DNA of 64,000 bases. It comes from Eutreptiella sp. 'Long Island Sound 2002'. Its lineage: Eukaryota > Protista > Euglenida. The position numbers and the translations under genes were made by a program. Shown here in pieces: positions 9,633-28,194 of the stretch; the stretch's first letter is position 1; the number at the start of each line of letters is the position of its first letter. The stretch covers positions 5,890,001 to 5,954,000 of the forward strand of contig OZ038378.1 of the NCBI GenBank assembly GCA_964036045.1, given 5' to 3'. The notes below the pieces were generated by a model, which made no database searches, had not been told where the DNA came from, and was given only the letters and a program-made list of their open reading frames with translations.

Positions 9633-11668
9633 TGGGAGGCGCGCGCTCGCGATTTTTTCGCGCTTGGCAAAGGTGATAAGACGCCAGTTGCTCACAATAA
9701 TTTCCAATGGCAAGCGGAATTACCCAATCCTTTCAAAGTATGCAAAAAACGAATTTGCGGATGACCCGAGGGGTCCAGCCCGTCTTCAGGAGCTATCGGC
9801 CGCTTGACGCGGGGTATCCGTCTTTCTGCTGCAGCTGAGGACACCGCCGATTACCGAAAGCCAGCCCAACTATGTTACACAAACAGCGCTTCAACTGGGT
9901 GCACTTCCGTTGATTTTGAGAAAGATCAAGCGCCGACATGGAGATCAATCAAGATCCGCATTGCCTGCGTGCCAGCGCCGAAAGACTCAAAAAGAGCTTC
10001 CGTTCTCCGTTTTAATGTTTTCAGAAGCCTGTCTGTCTCAACAGCCGCCGGATTTGGATACAACGAGTTCCCTGATAAGTTGACTCGCAATGCCTGCCCG
10101 CCAGCGCCGTGTGACTCAAGATGAGCTTCCGTTCACCGTCTTTCCAATGTTCGAAGCCTGTTGCCTCAACCGCCGCCGAATTTTGATAAAACAAGTTCCC
10201 TGGTAAACAAATGACTCGCAAGGACTGCCCGCCAGCGCCGTGTGACTCAAGATGAGCTTCCGTTCACCGTCTTCCGATGTTCGAAGCCTGTCTGCCTCAA
10301 CCGCCGCCGGATTTTGATAAAACAAGTTCCCTGATAAACAAATGAGCCGGAAGGACTGCCCGCCAGCGCCGTGTGACTCAAGATGAGCTTCCGTTCATCG
10401 TCTTCCGATGTTCGAAGCCTGTCTGCCTCAACCGGCGCCGGATTACGATAAAACAAGCTCCCTGACAAACAAATGACTCGCAAGGCCTGCATGCCAGCGC
10501 CGTGTGACTGAATATGAGCTTCCGTTCAACGCCTTTCCAATATTCGAAGCCTGTCTGCCACGACCGCCGCCGGTTAGTGACGAGACGAGCTCCCTGATGA
10601 ACAATTGACTCGTTCCCCGAAGCGCGTGCTACAGCACACCACTGCGGCCAGTAGCAACAGCCTCTACTAAAATGAAAACAACAACGCAGCCCGTTCCTAT
10701 GCGTCGCTCTGTCCCAGGTGCTTATTGATGATCAACAACTCCATCCGCCAGCGCCCAAGATGACAGCCACCGAGTTTGACAGCGCTGCAGTACACCATTG
10801 CAGCCAGGCATGAACGTGGACTGCCTCCAAAGCCTACATCGACCATCCTTCCGAGCACTCCACTTACGCTGCACCATGTCCAGTCCTTCTCTCTGAAGAA
10901 CTGATGACCAAGCAACTCAAGAAGTGTTTAAACTACCGCCGACTGTCCACTGCATCTACTTCTGATCTAAATCTGAATCTGAATTTTGACTTAACACCAG
11001 AGCCCTGCCCTTTGGCTGGCAGCCCTTTAAATACGTCCTGGAGCCCACAAGAATATCCAGGTTTGCCCTCTTTTTGATCGCTATGACACCATGAATACGT
11101 TTTCAGCCTCTATATAACTTATGACAACTCAGACACATGGGTTTCTCTCCTGACACGAACTCAGGTCCCCTGACGCCACACCTTGCAGATGTTTTTGAAT
11201 AACAATGCATTCTAATTTTCCACTATCTTTTCGCTGCTGTGGAGTATGGCCGACCCAGGGGCAGGAAACCCGGCTAACCACCGGGGCAATACACCCCATA
11301 GTAGGCCCAGAAACACAAAAGCAAACCACAAGTTTTCCACCGCCCCTCCAGCAGTTGACTGCATGGAAACAAACATGGAAAAACACACAGAAAGAAAAAC
11401 ACAGCCTGCACTCCCCAGTGCACCTGCATTTTTCTGTGCGAGCTGAACCCAGCCCCCTGCTTACAACAAGCCTCAGTGCAACCAATTCATCACCAAAACC
11501 TACCAATCAATCTACACCAAGAAACCATCAGAGCCATCTTTTTCGCTTTCCTAGGCGAACCGCCTCCGTGATATATTCTGTACTCCAAGTAGTGTACATA
11601 TTCTCACGAGGTCTTCCTTTGGGGGACGTCAGCCCCAGAACAAGTTGATGCGGTTAAGAACATTCAAA
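9633..11668 (+). mobile_element. 2,036-bp non-autonomous retroposon-like insertion with 16-bp target-site duplication
   Basis: AAATGTGCGCTCGTTG occurs at 9617-9632 and 11669-11684. A short A run precedes the second copy, and the host frame is restored on excision. Confidence 0.85.
9960..10620. repeat. Tandem array of 131-bp monomers, ~5 copies, no spacers
   Basis: GCCAGCGCCG(TGT/AAA)GACT starts at 9970, 10100, 10231, 10362 and 10493. Confidence 0.95.
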
Positions 11669-12049: not shown

Positions 12050-13600
12050 CGTTGCTGGTAGTGAAATTGTCCACTTTCACCATTTGAACCGTTGAAACTT
12101 GAAGGTGAAACTTGCACAACAACCTGCTTGTTGCAATTGCATGATGCCATTCCATCCTAGTTTGTTTTCTCTAGGGTCACTCTCAGTCATGTCAAACATC
12201 CTCAAGAATTTGGATCCGAGCTTAGTTCGTTTCAAGCAATCCCTTCACGCCGGAGGCATGCCGGCTGTGCCACACATGCAGCCCCTTGTTGTAATGACAC
12301 AACCACAACCAAAAGTTGAAGGCATGTTTCCCCTTCATTCACACATTCTCCAACGCCAATGGCTGCACGCTGAGGGCGCCCTTGCACGTGATAAACCCAA
12401 GTGGTCCTGGCTCAACGGCATCACGGTGAAGTGTCTGTTCCGGCGATGTCTGGCACTATGGATGCGGCGTGAAGTCCAATATGATCTGCAAGTGAACGCT
12501 CACTCCTCCTAGTCAACAAAGGCATTCGGGCTAACTGAGTCGGCCAATGTCAAGGCTTTGTGCATCGGCAAGAAGACAGACCCCACGTTCCGAATGACCT
12601 GTCAGGAGTGACGCTATTTTCAGCCGTGGGGACTTTGATGGAGTGGGGCACGCGGAAGCCACGGATGAGTTGTACTGGTGCGGGCAACGGTACTGGCTGT
12701 GGGCCCAGATTCTCTTCTTCCGATTTCAATACCCACGTGGCTGGTTTGATGCAAATGCAAGTTTGCCGGCATACAAACAAGGTCCCGCATCATTGCTGAC
12801 CCATGGTGCCACCATTTCTAGTGGCTATAAAAGGACGAATAGCAACAGGAGGTCATCTACCGCTAGCGACTGCATCAGCGCCGGCCACAGCCATGGGAAT
12901 GGCTTCCCCTCGCCTGCATGATGCTAGCAGCACACCTGACCATGCTGAGTGCTCAGAGGTAACAACCCCATTTGTTGTGTGTCTCCACAGTGAAACGGCG
13001 GTGAAACTGCGATGCCGAGGGGTTAAACAAAATGTATTTCACCAGTGCAAGGCATGGTTTCACAAGTGAAAGTGCTACATGTGATGTTGTGTTCGTTGTT
13101 CTCTCGTGTCACACAACCATCGAATCGGCAGCAGGAGTGACATGGTCGTTAATGATGAGCGAGGGTGTGGTGTTCTAGAGGCTAGCCAGTGGCCTGCGAT
13201 GGGCGTGACGAAGTGGCTGGCATAGAACGGCCACACGGCTGCTGGAAAAGAGATGAAATCGCGCTTGCATTGAGAATTGACCAAAGCCCTCAATCAATTG
13301 GGGGGAATGGGATCAGCAAGGGCCAAGCTGCAAGGGCGGCTTGGCTTGGGGCAGGCAAGGACTTCTGCAAAGAAGTGTAAAGAAGACGAATGATGCACAA
13401 TTAAGACATGTCCAATGCCCCGATGACCTGGCTACCGACGAGTGCATACACAAGACCTTGGATCGGCATACATCCTTGGTGCGCACATGTTTGATCATCG
13501 CTGGACTCTATTGAGTACGATGGCCAGACATTGAAGCTTTGCTATTTCCCACTTCAGCTGGGTGCCACAACCACCATCCACGGTGTGCGGGGTGCACTTG
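12050..13600 (-). pseudogene. Degenerate LINE-type RT remnant
   Basis: Minus strand: GIMQ (~12920), QSLAVDDLLL (~12845-12875, catalytic xDD position) and PGPLGF (GGLG-like, ~12395-12410). Confidence 0.4.
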
Positions 13601-14217
13601 GAGTACCGGTGCCAGCATCGTCGGTAGCGTGCCTTGTTGTGGTTGCAAGTGGAGCACCGTGTTTGCTCCATGATTGATATATGGCATCGTGATGGGCGGG
13701 AACACCTTGAATTGGGTAGCTTTTCTTTCAGGAGACGGTTGCGTACAACACCACCAGACTGCAAGTTGATGTTCACCCCACCACAATGGGTTGGCATTGC
13801 GGGTGGTGTGGGTTCCGACGTCAGGCGTACCGTTGTACCGGTTCCCCCCAATCGCATCTGTATGAGCAGCGAGGATGGACGATGAGACACGATGGGTGAA
13901 TAAACCACAGCCTTGGCTATGCATGGTTCACCATGGTGCACAACGGTAAATCCATGTGGAATGGCATGGTTGCACGTGTATTGCGTGCGTACCTGTGTCC
14001 TGTTTGTCATGCCTGCAGCACTCACCTACTGCCGCAATTGGCTGATGGAAACGGATGGGGGAGGGGGAGAGGCCGAAGGTGCGAATGCAGGTACAAGATG
14101 GGGAGATGGAGAGCAAGCAGATCAAAATCCATGATGAGGGTGCTGTATGTGAAGCCTTGGGAAGCGGCCTAGCGCCAACGAGAAGAATTGCGCGGTGACG
14201 TCCATCGTGTTGCTTAC

Positions 14218-14465
14218 TGTGACGGGTTATGCCCATCCTTGGGTCACCCGCAGCCGCAGGCAGATTTAGGCTTAGGTCGCGATCGCGCGCGGTGCTGAAA
14301 TTCAGGATTTTTAATCAAGAGAAACTGAGATTGTATAGTGCAATTACTGTGTATTATCGCAGGGTATTCTGTTATGAGAGACGGATGAACAATTTCGAAA
14401 CACTGGGAATTATTCAAGATCATTGGTGCAGTGCTGTCCGTGTCGAGGGATATTGGAGATAGAGA
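14218..14465 (+). repeat. 5' direct repeat/LTR (shared 248 bp; full LTR may extend to TGTGACA at 14549-14555)
   Basis: Identical to 17283-17530 except one substitution (AAACACTGGG vs AAACTCTGGG). Confidence 0.95.
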
Positions 14466-14572
14466 ACTCGGTGTGATTTCGTGGTCCTGAATACAAGAGT
14501 TTCGCTGTTCATCTAGGACAGCATTGCGAGAGTTCGTTCCTGGAGTGCTGTGACAGTGAGAGTCCGACGGAG

Positions 14573-15049
14573 ATGCCTGCTACAGTGTATGCTCGTGGTC
14601 TCGCTACGGAGTTGGAGAAGTGTGAAGTTCGACGAATCGTGAACCATGAAGAGAGAAAACAAGCTCGCCAAAAACTTCGCAACGAGAGGTACGCAAGGGC
14701 GTGTGCAAATCTCCTGCCGCCACATTACAAAAGTGTTCACGTTCATGGTCTGAGTGTGGAAGAACAATGGGAATGCGGTTGCGGAGGTGTTCAACAGGCG
14801 CAGGCCATTCAGGCTGATGAAGAGAGCGAGGAGGCCGCCATTCGTGCGGCCAACAGTGAAAAGGAGTCTGCTTGCTCTGCGGCAGCAGGGCACGAAGCCC
14901 AACTGAAGAAGAAGATCCGTCGCGGCGGCTACGGAGCCCGCCGGTGTCAGAGAACAGAAAATCATTCAAGCAAAAATTCTGACCTGAACTTCGTCAGAGA
15001 ACAGAGTCTCAGAGTGCACCCTGAGAGTGCCCAGGCGTGCACCTCGTGA
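14573..15049 (+). CDS. Hypothetical 158-aa protein of the LTR-like element (charged, Ala/Glu-rich; gag position)
   Basis: Intact ATG-started ORF 17 bp after the putative LTR end. No CCHC knuckle or known domain recognised. Confidence 0.5.
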   Translation: MPATVYARGLATELEKCEVRRIVNHEERKQARQKLRNERYARACANLLPPHYKSVHVHGLSVEEQWECGCGGVQQAQAIQADEESEEAAIRAANSEKESACSAAAGHEAQLKKKIRRGGYGARRCQRTENHSSKNSDLNFVREQSLRVHPESAQACTS

Positions 15050-15080
15050 GTGCCCGGGCGTGCACCTCAGGAGTGTCCAA
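15010..15080. repeat. 23-bp tandem repeat (GAGTGCCCRGGCGTGCACCTC)
   Basis: Units at ~15025 and 15048 plus partial flanking copies; spans the ORF stop. Confidence 0.8.
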
Positions 15081-15094
15081 GAAGATCAGTTCAC

Positions 15095-15310
15095 TCAAGC
15101 GCGCTGGCGAAGGCGCTAAAGGTGTGCACGTAGGCGAGAAAGGCAGCGCGGCATTGCTGATCGCTGGCGCCGCTGCAGGAGAGCGCTGACAGTGAGCGCT
15201 GATGCGGAGTGCAGCGCTGCAGGCAAGCGCTTTTGGTCAGCGCTGCGTGCAAGCGCTGAATGACAGCGCACACAACAAGCGCTGCAGGAGAGCGCTGCTG
15301 GAGTCAAAGC
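15095..15310. repeat. Cluster of palindromic AGCGCT/GCGC motifs
   Basis: Many AGCGCT hexamers packed into ~220 bp. Confidence 0.8.
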
Positions 15311-17282
15311 AGTGAAGGAGAGAGGGGCCGGGTTGTGGCAAGGAAGATAAACATAAAGGTTGTGTAGTGTCTTGCGTGTGTTCGTGCACGCTTGCGCAGT
15401 GGAAAGCCACAGAGGTGGCAGTTTTCACTGCATAACCGGGTTTCAGGCTCAGCTCATTCTCAGTTCGTGTCAGATTCATTACCACAATCACTGCTAGGAC
15501 CATCGTAGCACTGGACAGCTCTCTGGGTTGACGCGCGCCTCCCCTGAGCCTCGTGCTTGGGCTGGAAGGCTGTCAGCGCGTTTGCCTTTGTGTGTGTTTT
15601 TTTTTCCAGTGTTTGTCAAGTTTTATTTTTTGTGGCTGAATCTAGCCCAAATGAGCTTGATGGGAAAAACGGGTTTGACACCAAGCACCTTAGGCGCTCA
15701 AAAAGCACTGTTTTTGTGCTCAGTGGCTCACACTGATGTGCAGCCTTGCTTCAGTTTTTTGAATCTGAGGCCTCAGGCCCAGTTTTACACTGGCATGATT
15801 TTGAGCATTTTGCTCAGGAGATGTCAACCCAATTTTGGCTTGTTTTGCTGACAAGAGGAATATTTTTCAAAAAACTTCTGAATTTTTTTTCAGAGTCACA
15901 GTGTGGCTCTTGCTTGTTTCTTAACTCTTTGCTCCTGTTTCAGAGCTAGAGCACGCCTGTGCATCTGCCGGTGCTCTGCTCCCATATCTAATCTATGGGT
16001 AAACTGATTATATTTTTTTTTGTACCCTCCCCACCCACTGTCCCAGTTTGGGACTCATATACTCTGCCACTGCACAGTTTCGTTGCAGAGCCACTGCTCC
16101 TGCAGTGACTCCAGCCCCCCCACTGAGGGCATGCGTGCCTCAGTGGGCACCTACACTCTGGGCCAGGGTGTAGGGGAAAATTCTTCTTTGTTATTTTTTT
16201 TACAAGAGAATTTTGGGGTGCAGGTTTTGCCTGAGGGCAGCACCCCACGGTGGGAGGGGGGAGAGGCCACAACAACATATGTGCTGCAGGCCCGTGTACT
16301 GTTTACTTGCAATTTTTTCTGGGGACGCTCAGGAATTTTTTTACTAATGTATGCACGTGTGCACACTTGCGCATGTGTTTGTTGCATTGTATGCATGCAG
16401 GTTCGTTTGCCCTAACCTTCTGATTTTCTTACCCTTTCTCCTTTGCTTCCCTGTTTCCAGGTCAGTGAGATACGATGGGGATCAATTTTCAGATGTCGAC
16501 ATATCAAAAATACTTTTGGATGAGTCCAGCCAATTCAGGTCTGTGTTCTCGTTTCTGCACCAGCCCCCCCCATACGTCAGCGCTCCTATTTTGTTTCTCT
16601 GTCCTCTGCCTCAGAGTGATGGAGAGAGTGCTACTCAAGATGCTCAGAAGTAATTTAATTTTATATATTACTCAAGGCCGCAGCAGAAGTTTTTTGTATA
16701 TTACCAATAAGGGTCTCTATACCCTCTTGGGCAGTCAGTGTGTATTCACTTTCTTTTTTTGTGCCCTGTTGTTGCTGCTTTTGTGCCTGTTTGTCAATTT
16801 TTTTTTCACACTTCTGAGCAGGGTTTTTTTGGTGCAGGAAATTTTTTTTGGACCAGACAGATGGCATGGACGATAAGTAGAATCACGTAGAGCTGTTTTG
16901 GATTTCAGTTTTTTGGAGAACTGCCCCCCTGAGTTTTAGGCCAGGAGTTTAGAGCAGGATTTTGCTTAGGTGAACTTCTGTTTGCAAACTTTTAGTGCTT
17001 TCTCAGGAATTTTTTCCCATAGTCAGCTGGGTTTTTAGGTGGCAGTGAAACCCCCCCACTCGGAATGGTGTGTGGAGGTACCCGAAAAAAGGTAGAGAGG
17101 CCTTAGTTCAGGACTTCGGGCCTTGGGAGGGATATTGTACATTATCTTGAAGCAGTTTTGCATTTCTGTCGCGATTGGTAATCAATTTTTGGAAAATTTT
17201 TTGCATAAGGCTGTGCATACCCCTGGGTTTCTGTCAGCCCTTGCAGGTGGCCTGGTGGCTGCGGCAAGGGCTTGGCGGGGGG

Positions 17283-17530
17283 TGTGACGGGTTATGCCCA
17301 TCCTTGGGTCACCCGCAGCCGCAGGCAGATTTAGGCTTAGGTCGCGATCGCGCGCGGTGCTGAAATTCAGGATTTTTAATCAAGAGAAACTGAGATTGTA
17401 TAGTGCAATTACTGTGTATTATCGCAGGGTATTCTGTTATGAGAGACGGATGAACAATTTCGAAACTCTGGGAATTATTCAAGATCATTGGTGCAGTGCT
17501 GTCCGTGTCGAGGGATATTGGAGATAGAGA
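17283..17530 (+). repeat. 3' direct repeat/LTR, truncated after 248 bp
   Basis: Matches 14218-14465. It diverges after ...GATAGAGA and runs straight into the long ORF. Confidence 0.95.
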
Positions 17531-18952
17531 CTCCCCAGTCTGGATCAGGACGAGCAGATCGAGAGGCGCACGTGGCGTGTCCCTGCGGGCTACGCAGCTG
17601 TGGGCGCGGTTCGCACCATCATCAAGCTTATCTTTGATGATGGCATCATGGCCGTTTGCCCCGCAAGAGGCATCATTGCCAACCTGACGATGGACCTCAA
17701 CAGGCTCAAGGAGGACCCAATTGCATACCACCCCGCTGCTGCCTACTGCAAGACAGTGCGCAAGCAGCTTGACTCGGCTCCATACAAGGACGCGCTCCCC
17801 CACCTTGCCCAGTACCTGAGCTCCACTGGGAAGCTGCCCACGCTCCTTGCGAGCCCTGCCATGAGGATTGCCATCTCTACAGGCACCACGGCGAGCTGGA
17901 AGGCTCTGTGCGACTCCCTTGCCACAACTGGCGCCACGGATGATCCGAAGGAGACCAAGAAGAAGATCGCAGACGCCGGGGTCAAGGTCCACACTGTTTT
18001 TTATATCAGATTGTTTCACCGTTGCGAAGACAATTTCCAAATGGCTCTTCTGCCCTTCAGTGTGCTTGGCCTGTCCGCCCTCTCTGTCGCGGAACCCGGT
18101 GACACCGCGGAAACTTTACTCGTGAAAGTGCTCGGTGACATCAACAACGGCCTGGAGAAGTTGGGCTGGACTCACCTTTCGGACAGGGGCCTGTCTGAAG
18201 CTGAATTCATCCAAATTCACCCTGTGTGGTACAAGCCAAAGGACGCCGCCCTCACCATCAGGGCTGGTGCGACAGCCAAGGGCGCATTCGCCACGAACCA
18301 GGCCCTGTTCACTCTCGATGCTGGCACCCCAATTGCGATGCAGATTGCCGCAGACTTCCCAGCTGTGCTCAAGGGGCTGATGGCCCGTGAGCCCCTCTGC
18401 GATGAGGCGCTTCTGACTGAGCTCGCATATGGCGCGTGCTTCATCAGGGCATACCTCGTCAAAACAGGCTGCGTCGACAGGGAGTTCGAAGTTGTTGAGA
18501 CTGACCCACCCGATGACGCGGTCATCAGGGCTGCCTTATGGGCCAGAGACCGAAAGCCACCCGCCACTGCAGCGGTCGGCCTCCTGATCCACCACTGCAA
18601 ACTGAAGCATGCTAGCAACCATGCGGTTGGAGGTAGCATGCTGCCAGTCGCTGTGCTCACTGCGTATGCACGGGCGGTCGGCATGCCAGAGCAAACCTTT
18701 AAAGGTGCCCCTAAGAAGGTGCGCAAGGCTGCCACCAGTGCCGTTTACATGAGTGTTCATGCGTTCTCAACGCTCGGTGCGCTTATGCTGGCCCACAACT
18801 CCACTCTACGGGCCGACGCGGAGATGAGGGTCATCGGCCCGCTCACACTTACCATCCATCATCTTGGCTCCCTCACGGCAACATGCAGCCACACACCCTC
18901 TCCGTCGCTCAGCCCTCTAATCACCGCCACCGTGTCCCCCCAACGCCATTGA
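17528..18952 (+). CDS. Stop-free frame, putative negative-strand RNA virus (qinvirus/Chunqiuviricetes-like) nucleocapsid EVE; N-terminus truncated, last ~30 codons read into a neighbouring element
   Basis: Frame is open from 17528 (RLPSLDQDEQIERRTWRV...) and the first in-frame ATG is at 17648. It has GC3-rich codons and no introns or stops, unlike all flanking remnants. C-terminal motifs FIRAYLVKTGCVDREFEVVET, LLIHHCKLKHASNHAVGG and VYMSVHAFSTLGAL resemble, from recall, qin-like N motifs (K+NW..NHH.G; H..ST..L). The ORF is certain; the viral identity is tentative. Confidence 0.55.
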   Translation, partial: RLPSLDQDEQIERRTWRVPAGYAAVGAVRTIIKLIFDDGIMAVCPARGIIANLTMDLNRLKEDPIAYHPAAAYCKTVRKQLDSAPYKDALPHLAQYLSSTGKLPTLLASPAMRIAISTGTTASWKALCDSLATTGATDDPKETKKKIADAGVKVHTVFYIRLFHRCEDNFQMALLPFSVLGLSALSVAEPGDTAETLLVKVLGDINNGLEKLGWTHLSDRGLSEAEFIQIHPVWYKPKDAALTIRAGATAKGAFATNQALFTLDAGTPIAMQIAADFPAVLKGLMAREPLCDEALLTELAYGACFIRAYLVKTGCVDREFEVVETDPPDDAVIRAALWARDRKPPATAAVGLLIHHCKLKHASNHAVGGSMLPVAVLTAYARAVGMPEQTFKGAPKKVRKAATSAVYMSVHAFSTLGALMLAHNSTLRADAEMRVIGPLTLTIHHLGSLTATCSHTPSPSLSPLITATVSPQRH

Positions 18953-19370
18953 ACCCCTCACAACCCCAGCTTGACCCCAACCCCCATCACTCCCGCGCGC
19001 CCCCTCTTCCAAAGGACAGCATGGGGCCCCCTCCCGCACTGAACACACTTCTTGCCGCCTCTGACCATGCAAACTTGCAAAGCATCTTGTAGCCACAGCC
19101 ACACCCGCACTCACTCCCGCTTCCGCTCCCTTCCCAAGTCCACTTGAGCGAGATACCGAGGCGGGGATGTCCTGCGACATCCAACAGCCAAATGGGTTGC
19201 AGTCTCTGGGGCCGGCCCTGAAATGCCCTGGAGTGCAAATGAGCATCATAGTGGCGGTGCAAGAATTGTATGGGGATGTGGCTGGCGCTCGGTGTTCCGC
19301 TAAGGAAGTAGGCTCCTCCTGACCAATGACGCCGCAGGGCAGGCCATCCGCGGCGCCATTCAGCATTAGT
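18860..19370 (-). pseudogene. Non-LTR retroelement fragment abutting the 3' end of the long ORF
   Basis: Composition shifts abruptly to C-rich at ~18855. The minus-strand translation (ATMMLICTPGHFRAGPRDCNPFG) resembles the decayed post-RT/RNase H family seen at 1.2-2.5 and 6.4-7 kb. Confidence 0.4.
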
Positions 19371-19899
19371 AGCTCGCGATGGCCCTTAGGCTGCCGCTGG
19401 CTGAAATCTTGCGGAACCTGCCCATGACTCTATAACTAAAAACAGTTGGGCCACCGTTGATCAAACTCGGACCCAAGAGGGTGGGCGCGTGCGCGTGAGC
19501 CGCGGGGATCAGTTACAATGGCTTCTCCACCTTTTGCTTTCCTCCGTAATTACGGCCCTATAAGACATATCCACATCTATTGTCCCGTAATTTCATTCCC
19601 TATGGTTGAAATGCTAACAGCAAGGGAGACTACCGCAATACGCCTCTTCGTCAAACCACAACTTCTTGATTCACCGTCACGCTCATCTTCCACATTACGT
19701 CGAAAATGGATCAAACTGCGTGTACCATTCCCACAACAGATATTGGTTCCGCCATGAAGGTATTTTCACCCAAAGTCCCTGTGTGCGCTCTCAGCAGCTC
19801 AATGAGTGTCCACTACCAAATGAAATTGGACTCCAACAAGACATTGGACATTCCGTTGATGCAGCAACGATGTCTCAGGCACAAGACTTGGAGAAATTC

Positions 19900-20260
19900 T
19901 CTCGCAGGAGCTACGGGACTCCAAGAACACTCTACGACTCACAGCCAACAACCACACATGCCGTTTATCAACCAGCGAACGGAATTGGAATATCCTTGCC
20001 TTGGATAAAAGAAACAAACTTCGTGAAGACTTACCGGACTTCCGTAACCCTCCGTGATGGGCGGATTATCACTACTGAATGGGGTCAACCGTCAGCGTCG
20101 TTATCGGTTCATGCAGCATCAAAGCCTCAGGTACAATATTCGGAAAAATTTTCCAACTAGGAGCTACGGGACGTCTGCAACACTCTACGACTCACAGTCA
20201 ACAAGCACATGTCGTTTATGAACCGCCGAATTGAATTGGATTATCAGTGCTTTAGATGAA
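19900..20260 (+). repeat. Diverged direct duplication, ~254-bp period
   Basis: GGAGCTACGGGAC...AACACTCTACGACTCACAG occurs at ~19907 and ~20161. Confidence 0.8.
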
Positions 20261-20459
20261 TGATATAAACTCTGAGAGGACGTACCGTACTTTTTGTAGC
20301 CCTCCATGACCTGTACCACCACAACTGCTCATGGCATATGTCAATTGGCTCAAGACGGTGAATCATCATGCAACAACGCACCATCTCTGCATTCATCGTC
20401 GAACTGAAATATCTATAAAGTTTCTCCTTTGGAGTGCCCGCACCGAACTACAGCCAAAC

Positions 20460-21560
20460 TTCAAAACGATGTTCATCCATGTTCATGTGTTATTGGATCT
20501 ATGTGCTGCACAACACATCAAAAGCATGTTAATTTTGTTTTTCATCCATTTACCTCTCCCATTTCATGCACCATCCCCTTTTATCCATTTCCCTTATTTC
20601 CCCATTTTGATCGTTGTTATTGGCCACATTACAACTATCCCTCTGCTCTTTTGCCATGCACCACCTTCCCTTCAAAACGATCTTCATCCATGTTCATGTG
20701 TTATTCCATGCACATCAAAGCATGTTAGTCTTGTTTTTCATCCAATCCCCCTCGTGCATCCATTTATCCTTTTCTTATCCCTTTCTCTTGTTTCCCTACT
20801 TTGATCTTTGTTATTGGCCACTTTAGTTTGCTACTTGGCCATACAAAACTGGGCTGTATTTCATAATGTGTGTTTTCTTCCATCCCATCCTTGGCCATGC
20901 ACAATTTACCCATCAAAAAGTTTGTCCTTAATTTCTCCCTCATATTTCATGCACCATCCATCCATCCCTTTTTTATGCATTTCATTTATTTCCCGATTTT
21001 GATCGTTGTTACTTGCCACTTTAGTTTGCTACTTTGGGTGCTCCTTTGCCATACACCATCTCGCCGTTGCTCACGCTGTGTGTTTTCTTCCATCCCATCC
21101 TTGGCCATGCACAATTTACCCATCAAAACGTTTGTCCTGAATTTCTCCCTCATATTTCATGCACCATCCATCCATCCCTTTTTTATGCATTTCATTTATT
21201 TCCCGATTTTGATCGTTGTTACTTGCCACTTTAGTTTGCTACTTTGGGTGCTCCTTTGCCATACACCATCTCGCCGTTGCTCACGTTGTGTGTTTTCTTC
21301 CATCCCATCCTTTGCCATGCACATTTTACCCATCAAAAAGTTTTTCATTCATTTCTCCTTCCCATGCCATGCACCATTCATCCATCCAAAGCATGTGCAT
21401 CTTCCTCATGTGTTTTTTATTCCTTCCCCACTTTACCATGCACGATCTACCAATCAAAAAATATTTTCATCAGTTATTTCATTCTTGCACATCACATAAC
21501 ATCAAAACCATCTTCCTTTAGGCTTTCATCTATTTTTTTGTCATTTCTCGTATTTCCATG
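20460..21560. repeat. Pyrimidine-rich satellite with 210-bp higher-order unit
   Basis: CATCCCATCCTT(G/T)GCCATGCACA at 20881, 21091 and 21301, with more degenerate subunits upstream. Confidence 0.92.
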
Positions 21561-24029: not shown

Positions 24030-25440
24030 CTATGCATGGCAGCCCTGCTGGTCCCAAAGCGGCAGAAGCGTCTGCACCAAAGCGACGGAGACCTCGGGTC
24101 CCAAGGTGGCGGAGGCCCTTGCCCCAAAGCGGTAGGGGCCCTGGTGGTCCCAAGTTGGCAGAGCCCCTGCCGTGCATATGTCGCTCATCGTACCACCTTT
24201 GCCGCACTTGCAAACATCCAAAACATCCTTTTTTTCTTTCGACTGCTGGGGAGTCACTATGCATCAGCTTTCGTGAGCCAAAGACTTTGGAGGGTATGCC
24301 CTTCTGCCGGCCCTCATCTGGCTTATGGTCCAAGCACGGCTGCCGGTGATGGTCCATCTTTCTGATTTCTGTGTCTTCCCCTCAGCCCCAGTCTGACATT
24401 TCAACCGTTGGTGTGATGGTATAGGCCTTGTCATGAAAGCACATTTCTTGCCTGTGCTGCAACTGGCCTCATTGCGCAAGCCATGGCAGCCACGGTACTT
24501 CCTGGCCTGAAGTTGCCAAGCCTTTTCTTAGGCCCGCACGTTCGCAGTAGATCGGTTAACGGTAGAAAACATCCACTCTCTGCCCGTGTGGCATTGTGCC
24601 ATCTTCTAGAATAAGCATCATAGAACCTATGTGGCCCCGCGACTTGTGCGAAAAGGCACACTAACAATAGATTAGCTGTTTGACCCACAACACCGCATTT
24701 TGCCAGCCTTTACCAAACTCGGGGGAAACACGTGGATCCTAATTTATCACACCGCCCTCCTAAAGTGTCAACAGGAAATTATCAATGACTGGTCCAGACC
24801 CACAGCCTGGGTGAATGGAAAGGCAAAGTCTATGACTTTGCAACACATTGCGCCTTCGCCGTGTATCACCTACAAGCAGGATGAAGATGTTTGGTCTGCG
24901 TTTTGGAACTGCTGTTACCCACCGGTCCTCTCTGATTTTGTCTACACGGTGTTGTGGTCTAAACTTAAAGTCCAGCAGCGGCTTTTGCCCATCTCTCGCG
25001 CAAAGAAATTTCCCCTCTGCTACACAAAAATAGAATCGATCACGCATGACACTATTGTAAGTTTTTCCCACACGTCTATGTGTTGATGTCAAAAGCCGTT
25101 GGGCAAGACACCGCCACTTGGACACTAGGAAAATTAGAAGCCACGAAAACAATAGATTCTATAATATTGTGGAATGCGCAGAAGGCACGGTGGGGGGGGT
25201 GAGGTGTGCAGCTCATTGTTTCCACATCCCCACCCTTGGCGCGTTTTTGTGCGCCTGGATCAATAATATCCAGGACTTGGTACAGTGGGAGCCCCTGGGG
25301 CACGTTGCAGAGCCGTTGTTGCAATTCACGCATTTTGTACAGGAGTATCGTGAGACTGAGGTCCTGGCTGCCCCTACCCTGTCCTGGTGGGGCCAGAATG
25401 GCCCTACGTTGCCCCCCTCAAAAAAGAAAAAATAATCTGA
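24030..25440 (+). mobile_element. 3' end of a LINE-like element (zf-RVT region and A-rich tail)
   Basis: VWSAFWNCCYPPVLSDFVYTVLWSKLKVQQRLLPISRAKKFPLCYTKIESITH (zf-RVT-like, 24890-25050) and AAAAAGAAAAAATAA at ~25420-25436. Confidence 0.6.
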
Positions 25441-27322: not shown

Positions 27323-28194
27323 ATGTCAGCACTGCAGAGGACGCTATTTTGCGGAATTCGCTGTGCTATTTGTGTAGTGACGCTTCACGTCAATCTGCTC
27401 GTTAGTTTTTGTTGTCCCGCACTTAGCGACTTGTCGAGGTATGCAGTATTGGATATCTTCAAGGACCATTTCCTTGGCCACATAACAGCATCAGTCACGG
27501 ACAACATCATGTTAATGCCGAAGTTTAAGTTGCACATCAAAGTTGAACAAGGGCAATTGAAGAATCACATTGGTAAGATGCGGGATTTACGACAGCAATG
27601 ACAAATTATGATCAACTCTTGCGACACCACTACCGTGAGACCAAGGCGATGAGGGTCCAAACAATGCAGCCAGGGGTGTCCTTACCGGGGAAAAAAAAGT
27701 GTTCCGGTACCAGTTCTCCCAAAAAACCCCGCGGGCACTCCATGTGCTCAACCATGGTTGGTGGCAGTTGGCGGTTGGCGGTTGGTGGCGGTTGGCGGTT
27801 GGCGGTTGGCAGTTGGCAACTGGCGGTTGGTGGCGGTTGGTGGTGGTTGGCGGCGGTTGGTGGCTGGCGGTTGGTGGTTGGAGGCGGTTGGCAGTGGTTG
27901 ACAGTTGGCGGTTGGTCGCCGCTGGCGGTTGGTGGCGGTTGGTGGTTGGCGGTTGGTGGCGGTTGGCAGTTGATGGGAGTTGGCGGTTGGCGGTTGGTGG
28001 TCCCTTGGGGGGGTCCTTAAGGGCTGTCCTTAGCCAAAAAAAAAATCGCCCCTTAAGGACCCCCCTGAATGCAGCATCAAATTCATCTAGACAAAGAAGC
28101 ACATAGGCTCGAGAAAGAAGACCAGATTGCAGTTGATTCACTGACGGCCAACATCATCTCCTCAAGCCGAAATGTATTTAGCGAGACATGCACG
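27323..28194 (+). pseudogene. Decayed coiled-coil-like ORF interrupted by the MITE
   Basis: Excising the MITE plus one TSD gives the continuous frame MTNYDQLLRHHYRETKAMRVQTMQ|HQIHLDKEAHRLEKEDQIAVDSLTANIISSS. Confidence 0.5.
27671..28067. mobile_element. 397-bp hAT-type MITE with 8-bp TSD and internal GGCGGTT/GGTGG minisatellite
   Basis: TSD AATGCAGC at 27663-27670 and 28068-28075. Imperfect TIRs CAGGGGTGTCCTTACCGGGG / CCCCTTAAGGACCCCCCTG. Confidence 0.9.

Follow-up and report, generated by a model that had tools for sequence, protein, structure and literature searches.

Organization of the Locus

The stretch of DNA considered here, referred to as the window, spans 64,000 nucleotides of contig OZ038378.1 from the euglenid Eutreptiella sp. 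'Long Island Sound 2002', and all coordinates given below are positions within it. It carries a long terminal repeat (LTR) element whose 3' LTR is incomplete and passes directly into an open reading frame (ORF) that is a qinvirus-like nucleocapsid (N) gene in rearranged order. The whole arrangement, flanked by a short target-site duplication (TSD), presents the appearance of an endogenous viral element (EVE) that was inserted together with the LTR element. Its features, including those read on the minus strand, are as follows.

14213..14217, plus strand: left TSD, CTTAC, taken from the window assembly and lying outside the stretch compared with reads
14218..14555, plus strand: 5' LTR, starting TGTGAC; the length of 338 bp is inferred from a candidate end (...TGTGACA) at 14555
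14573..15049, plus strand: ORF of 158 aa directly past the candidate LTR end, without family or homologue match
15367..17273, plus strand: non-coding internal region common to a high-copy family, without gag/pol domain
17274..17282, plus strand: polypurine tract (PPT) GGCGGGGGG, immediately preceding TGTGAC
17283..17530, plus strand: 3' LTR, only its first 248 nt (likely U3-R), the remaining ~90 nt being replaced
17531..17990, plus strand: C-terminal half of the qinvirus-like N gene (profile positions 240-390), without the last ~25-35 codons and stop
17991..18040, plus strand: AT-rich linker of ~50 nt, likely viral 5' untranslated region (UTR), holding the internal permutation join, whose exact point is inferred
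18041..18847, plus strand: N-terminal part of the qinvirus-like N gene, opening with the gene's ATG and spanning profile positions 6-228 and a further 12 codons
18848..18852, plus strand: right TSD, CTTAC, bridged without differences by DNA-type contigs of runs X1, X3 and X4, from which the assembly itself may have been built
18853..18952, plus strand: host flank, in which the frame continues to a chance stop; together with the TSD it makes residues 441-474 non-viral
17384..18710, minus strand: likely antisense, spliced-leader-capped RNA running across the viral insert into the LTR, seen as RNA contigs
18711..18730, minus strand: pyrimidine tract plus AG, likely spliced-leader acceptor, with the tied-best pyrimidine score of 77 YAG sites
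from ATG 18684, minus strand: 155-codon frame on the antisense RNA, an apparent shadow of the N frame

The direct terminal repeat of the element starts with TGTGAC. Self-BLAST delimits a repeat of exactly 248 bp between 14218-14465 and 17283-17530, with a single mismatch (A at 14402, T at 17467), and reveals no more LTR sequence downstream of the ORF. Past nucleotide 248 the 5' copy reads AGAGA-ACTC and the junction AGAGA-CTC. The open frame covers 17528-18952 (474 codons), follows a TAG at 17525-17527 within the LTR copy and contains an in-frame ATG at 17648. Except for the mismatch, these features, together with the PPT-like run and the missing remainder of the LTR, had been pointed out in an initial annotation of the same DNA and were recovered here; the TSD flanking the unit had been overlooked. 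The annotation had also regarded the LTR as truncated, which holds, given that family copies extend beyond nucleotide 248: a contig of run X3 links 17504 to 14440, at a depth of 17.6 versus 2 on the ORF. The 3' LTR is thus cut short relative to the family copies. In all four DNA-like runs the bin 14440-14615 had 1.3-1.6 times the depth of the next bin, which is weak evidence for the candidate 5' LTR, as depth is not a copy number.

Among the scanned ORFs of 14218-17282 there was no Pfam match to gag/pol (reverse transcriptase, RNase H, integrase) such as autonomous Ty1/copia, Ty3/gypsy or Bel/Pao elements carry, and the element is therefore non-autonomous and must have used the enzymes of another element. 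None of the four ACA candidates in 14466-14620 is followed by a TGG-type primer-binding site, as judged without host tRNA sequences. No longer homologue of the 158-aa ORF was found, which is weak evidence, and Rfam (13000-21000) and ARAGORN gave no match. GTCACA at 15895-15900 was also considered as LTR end and ranked lower than 14555. The motif GGGTTATG, just inside the LTR start, is reminiscent of the half-tRNA primer sites of copia elements; this role was dropped because of its location within the LTR. A related element subfamily (15367-17300) appears as contigs of 2.5-2.9 kb, with depths of 24-210, in all four RNA-type runs; after 17300 it changes to a different LTR, into which these contigs extend by up to ~230 nt.

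A Qinvirus-Like Nucleocapsid Gene

Apart from the query, a full HMMER scan brought up 16 homologues, mostly of 400-525 aa and encoded on contigs of 1.5-2.1 kb. The query matches the profile of this family in both halves, with a full-sequence E of 6.7e-71. One homologue, P0009 (phmmer E of 4.5e-12 to the query, 29% identity), was modelled from a 25-row alignment with a pLDDT of 73.6, and this model had seven Foldseek matches at E<=0.001 among viral structures, the next one, non-significant, lying at E 0.049. The seven comprise four named qin-like viruses, one entry listed as Qinviridae, one unnamed entry and Xinzhou nematode virus 3, which we take to be a qinvirus. As the fold of P0009 is closest to that of qinvirus N, the ORF is a qinvirus-like N gene. 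The viral character that the initial annotation had ascribed to the frame is supported by homologue search, profile and fold alike.

No Pfam family scored above cut-off for the ORF, the 16 homologues or 100 other frames of the window, PDB sequence searches returned nothing significant, and the P0009 model had no Foldseek match at E<=0.001 among PDB structures. The only match in a word search of 90% clusters was the protein itself, and Atlas offered only leads scoring under 0.9. The top four VIA rows were paramyxo/pneumovirus N proteins (Z 4.6-5.6, rmsd 4.8-6.2, 193-231 residues aligned), values below the reliable range. No locus was returned by IMG/VR scans with P0001, P0016 and P0012, nor by scans of JGI metagenomes with the LTR pattern and with alignment A4. 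No RNA-dependent RNA polymerase (RdRp) or L segment is linked to the insert.

Some members of the N family have a different context. P0016, P0029 and P0031 lie on contigs of 12.9-18.2 kb and may represent unsegmented relatives or other endogenous copies. The closest relatives, P0003, P0007 and P0010 (36-47% identity), are fragments on contigs of 1.6-7.3 kb, two of them with apparently frameshifted ends, and are possibly further endogenous copies in related hosts.

Circular Permutation of the N Gene

The initial annotation had treated the ORF as colinear. When aligned to the profile built from 17 homologues, residues 2-150 correspond to positions 240-390 (E 1.6e-40) and residues 195-428 to positions 6-228 (E 2.7e-33). 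The N gene is thus circularly permuted, with its C-terminal half first, followed by a likely 5' UTR and then by its N-terminal half. Its own start is ATG 18041, which matches the Met where P0003 (47% identical) begins. The conserved His-to-Pro spacing, when summed over the two outer ends of the insert, amounts to 47, a value of 44-52 being found in all 11 full-length homologues and of 55 in the fragment P0007. The outer ends (nucleotide 18847, at the end of codon 440, and nucleotide 17531) consequently abut in homologue coordinates. Past a marker Ser the tail measures 63 residues including the linker, compared with 74-96 in ten homologues and 148 in one, and this shortness indicates that the true tail and its stop are missing.

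In all, 1317 nt of the N gene (439 whole codons, stop-free) are joined to the 248-bp LTR copy. The viral frame does start at the LTR junction, as annotated, but its viral part ends at 18847 and not at 18952. It begins with CTCCCC, which the minus strand reads as a run of purines rich in G. Confidence in both the identity of the gene and its permutation is high. Within the linker (17995-18009), a plus-strand T tract followed by AG precedes ATG 18041 by 31 nt. It is a conceivable acceptor for a sense transcript, although none of the contigs ended at this point.

Insertion as a Single Unit

The unit 14218-18847 starts with TGTGA, the beginning of the LTR, ends with the inverted counterpart, TCACA, and is flanked on both sides by the 5-bp CTTAC. 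The viral piece is accordingly the right end of the LTR element. The CTTAC that precedes the 5' LTR recurs right after 18847, where it forms the sole CA+CTTAC between 14466 and 30000; the probability of finding it by chance at the boundary predicted from homology (45-nt window) is ~0.003, decreasing to 4e-5 when TCACA is included. In addition, the two LTR copies have in common a T at 17437/14372, a position that is A in other contigs of the family, as expected if both were derived from one cDNA. A template-switch origin involving an LTR element, suggested by the initial annotation, agrees with the locus and is strengthened by the TSD and by the variant common to both LTR copies. Confidence in a single-event integration is good.

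Eight of the 21 listed sequencing runs were compared with the locus. The RNA-type ones were three estuary metatranscriptomes, maybe from one campaign, and X10, classed as RNA by guess. In three of these four (X5, X6 and X9) RNA contigs bridge the LTR/ORF junction without differences, X10 including only 14 LTR letters, and an assembly error at the junction is thereby contradicted. DNA-type contigs enter the LTR by no more than 30 letters, one below the bridging standard. At the opposite end, DNA-type contigs of runs X1, X3 and X4 continue from the insert into the host flank without differences, which places the viral sequence in host DNA. In run X8 (organism B) the LTR family is covered while the insert and right flank are not, a contig hole that proves nothing.

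The locus is therefore best described as a single-copy EVE in which a permuted qinvirus-like N gene ends a non-coding LTR element, likely as a result of template switching by reverse transcriptase followed by a likely integrase-mediated insertion. The probability of this reading is estimated at about 0.72.

Expression and Likely Antisense Orientation

All four RNA-type runs carry the insert without differences, and their contigs all end at 18711 with 8-14 unplaced letters. They cover neither the multi-copy 14440-15319 nor the flank beyond 18711, which argues against DNA carry-over. In X5 the loose end reads, on the minus strand, adapter, T run, C and then the G at 18711, which equals the 3' end of the Eutreptiella/Euglena spliced leader, published as ending in a T run plus CG (PMC3621762). 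Since this end matches the leader at a minus-strand AG, the host is likely a euglenid, and the RNA likely has the polarity opposite to the viral mRNA, with a spliced-leader cap, and is not an LTR-promoted sense mRNA. Confidence in antisense trans-splicing is good. No spliced-leader gene was found within the window, and the stop-to-stop frame 18217-18744 on the minus strand had no Pfam match.

The initial annotation had proposed that the LTR serves as promoter for ATG 17648. This does not agree with the N gene having its own start at ATG 18041, nor with RNA contigs that stop at 18711 in a leader-like end and thereby point to a minus-strand transcript; a sense transcript from the LTR is conceivable, given that the contigs are strandless, but has no support. 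The end at 18711 could otherwise be taken as a plus-strand poly(A), an unlikely reading that leaves the non-templated G unexplained, whereas the leader predicts that G.

As to the meaning of the antisense RNA, incidental read-through to a cryptic acceptor is somewhat favoured. Otherwise it would be a source of antiviral small RNAs, and an antiviral role is predicted with low confidence. Euglena gracilis possesses Dicer-like and Argonaute components (PMC8230907), and the locus provides a natural antisense RNA with which to ask whether EVE-based antiviral memory exists outside animals. In the most far-reaching scenario, a viral look-alike of the PPT and LTR start would have given the qinvirus N gene an integrase-ready end and a one-lap copy, now read as a capped antisense RNA that confers heritable immunity by RNA interference, and RNA viruses would here be recorded from euglenids for the first time; taken as a whole, this combination is rather doubtful.

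Proposed Capture Mechanism

On the minus strand the right end of the insert begins with TGTGAG, and its left end finishes with ...GGGGAG, a G-rich purine run; the element's own arrangement, for comparison, is GGCGGGGGG followed by TGTGAC. Of the 1317 minus-strand positions of the insert, 4 hold a purine hexamer with at least five G and 1 holds TGTGA, the two motifs being located at the two insert ends. As these ends were neighbours in the virus, the point at which the N gene was opened is a look-alike of a PPT followed by an LTR start.

The general course of LTR reverse transcription supplies the steps of the model. DNA synthesis would have been primed within the N gene at the PPT-like purine run, so that the new strand began with TGTGA, an integrase-ready end. 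The enzyme would then have copied to the 5' end of the segment, jumped near the C-terminal coding end and continued to its own starting point, completing one lap of 1317 nt. A switch to the element RNA may have followed at LTR nucleotide 248, possibly the 3' end of that RNA, with a microhomology of 1 nt if exact or 4 nt if slipped. With the element's primer site unused, copying would have proceeded to the 5' end of the RNA, and a second transfer through R would have restored an intact 5' LTR before integrase inserted the resulting molecule. Confidence in the detailed order of these steps is moderate.

As a rule, proximity to LTRs is what leads to the inference that a retrotransposon has captured RNA-virus sequence. 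The present locus keeps the site of priming, the three points of switching and the two ends used for integration, which makes a stepwise mechanism testable, and it is a real fossil, unusual in its completeness, of virus capture mediated by a retrotransposon. It also suggests that integration of a viral fragment is decided by the presence of PPT/att look-alikes, a rule that can be checked across other EVEs.

Several points weigh against the reading of the locus as a captured, permuted N gene with an antisense transcript. The matching fold belongs to the homologue P0009, the query's own single-sequence model being poor (pLDDT of 36.6). The element has no gag/pol and no recognisable primer-binding site, 14555 is no more than a candidate for its LTR end, and the R/U5 boundary has been placed at LTR nucleotide 248 by guess. 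The favoured model does not require the internal join to keep the frame and to be free of stops, as it does (~1/3 x 0.35). If the homology constraint is set aside, CA+CTTAC occurs in 27% of 3.5-kb shuffles and TCACA+CTTAC in 0.6%; no empty site has come to light. The left TSD lies outside the read comparison. Regarding the transcript, leader letters are known for one of the four RNA contigs (X5) and the contigs are strandless. A single campaign may lie behind the three estuary studies, and the classing of X10 as RNA is a guess. Finally, the order of the steps is unreadable from one locus.

Alternative Explanations

The alternative that survives best places the permutation before the capture: the viral piece would first have been a closed circle, either of viral cDNA or of a defective RNA, which was opened and recombined with the LTR element before insertion by integrase. 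An opened circle would yield an exact unit-length permutation, insects do form circular viral DNA from defective genomes, chimeric with LTRs (PMC5857290), and a C-terminal tail shorter than in 11 of 11 homologues is deletion-product-like. A circle alone, however, leaves the PPT-like run beside TGTGA at the opening point unexplained, and if PPT-like priming is added the proposal merges with the template-switch model described above; on its own it is considered unlikely.

It is also conceivable, if distinctly improbable, that the N segment of the source virus was circular by nature and its reading frame endless, the insert being one complete lap of it. The 439 whole codons, free of stops and with an in-frame internal join, would fit such a segment, as would P0003, a 166-aa N-terminal piece on a contig of 1581 nt. 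Nevertheless, all 11 full-length homologues show the normal order, with tails of 74-148 residues after the marker Ser versus 63 here, and the described small segments of qinviruses carry ordinary ORFs (PMC10496375, PMC11108086). Moreover, it was the long open frame that drew attention to the locus, so that the coincidence is partly selected.

Still less probable is the placement of viral cDNA into the 3' LTR of a resident element by DNA repair, with deletion of the rest of that LTR and a chance match of CTTAC. An intact 5' LTR beside a cut 3' LTR and the short microhomology at the junction are compatible with repair, which on the other hand needs a chance CA+CTTAC at the exact viral boundary (0.003) plus the inverted TCACA end. 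Finally, the reading of the ORF as a host gene into which an LTR was inserted, or of the join as an assembly error, finds some room in the lack of a Pfam family, in the word search that gave only the protein itself and in homologues on 13-18 kb contigs of unknown nature, but is largely refuted by the qinvirus N fold, the permuted order and the bridging of the junction by RNA contigs from three separately filed runs.

Comparison with Known Systems

The small-segment N proteins of Qinviridae (for example, those of Sanxia, Shahe and Wenzhou qinvirus-like viruses, LeppyrQLV1 and the Obscuromonas qin-like S1) share the same family fold and measure ~400-450 aa; their segments of 1.6-2.2 kb are similar to the contigs of 1.5-2.1 kb on which most homologues found here reside. 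In contrast to them, the Eutreptiella locus is host DNA, is permuted, lacks the C-terminal tail and stop as well as a linked RdRp, and has a likely euglenid host. Qinvirus N has been reported to group structurally with Haploviricotina (PMC10888975). Confirmed qinvirus hosts are reported only among trypanosomatids, which are euglenozoans (PMC10496375, PMC11108086), and a 2021 review gives no verified euglenid virus (PMC8061765). The locus points to euglenids as qinvirus hosts.

Joining of non-retroviral RNA viruses to LTR elements has been described for lymphocytic choriomeningitis virus (LCMV) and an intracisternal A-particle (IAP) element (PMC3205384), for flock house virus-LTR chimeras with discontinuous viral pieces in Drosophila and mosquito viral DNA (PMC5857290), and through copy-choice in mosquito cells (PMC6797480). 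LCMV-IAP and the insect chimeras of linear or circular viral DNA resemble the present case in having a junction in the LTR, discontinuous pieces and copy-choice. Those chimeras are mostly transient or somatic products of animals, whereas here the product is inherited and both integration ends and the TSD are kept; unlike in those cases, one end comes from the virus by way of a PPT/att look-alike, and the viral piece has been permuted at unit length.

A close parallel is eBxnv-1 of Bursaphelenchus xylophilus (PMC5177903), likewise a single-copy, expressed RNA-virus gene in an LTR element attributed to copy-choice by reverse transcriptase. It differs in lying between the two LTRs of a pol-bearing Bel/Pao element and in deriving from the RdRp of a plus-strand virus, and no permutation or antisense leader is noted in the accessible part of that report. 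RNA-virus sequence is likewise fixed in protist nuclear genomes in the form of tombus-like EVEs of Leptomonas and Blastocrithidia and of a qin-like RdRp EVE of Bigelowiella natans (10.1101/2021.05.09.443335); for these, the accessible text mentions no LTR fusion, permutation or antisense trans-spliced RNA. Among the papers listed by searches of the open-access literature there was no permuted EVE, PPT-mimic end or euglenid EVE, which is not proof of absence. The capture route is thus already known from animals, and no precedent for the permutation, the mimic end or a euglenid host was found in these searches.

Other Features of the Window

The region 36900-64000 contains a direct duplication of ~14 kb with 97-100% identity (e.g., 37507 versus 51375 and 41730 versus 55711), filled with a diverged satellite of ~53 bp. 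A weak zf-RVT match at 24676-25086 (E 0.0028, below cut-off) likely marks a decayed non-LTR retrotransposon. Tandem arrays with periods of ~47, 131 and 210 bp, plus a short GGTTGGC-type repeat, are found at 497-1186, 9957-10612, 20459-21458 and 27731-28021.

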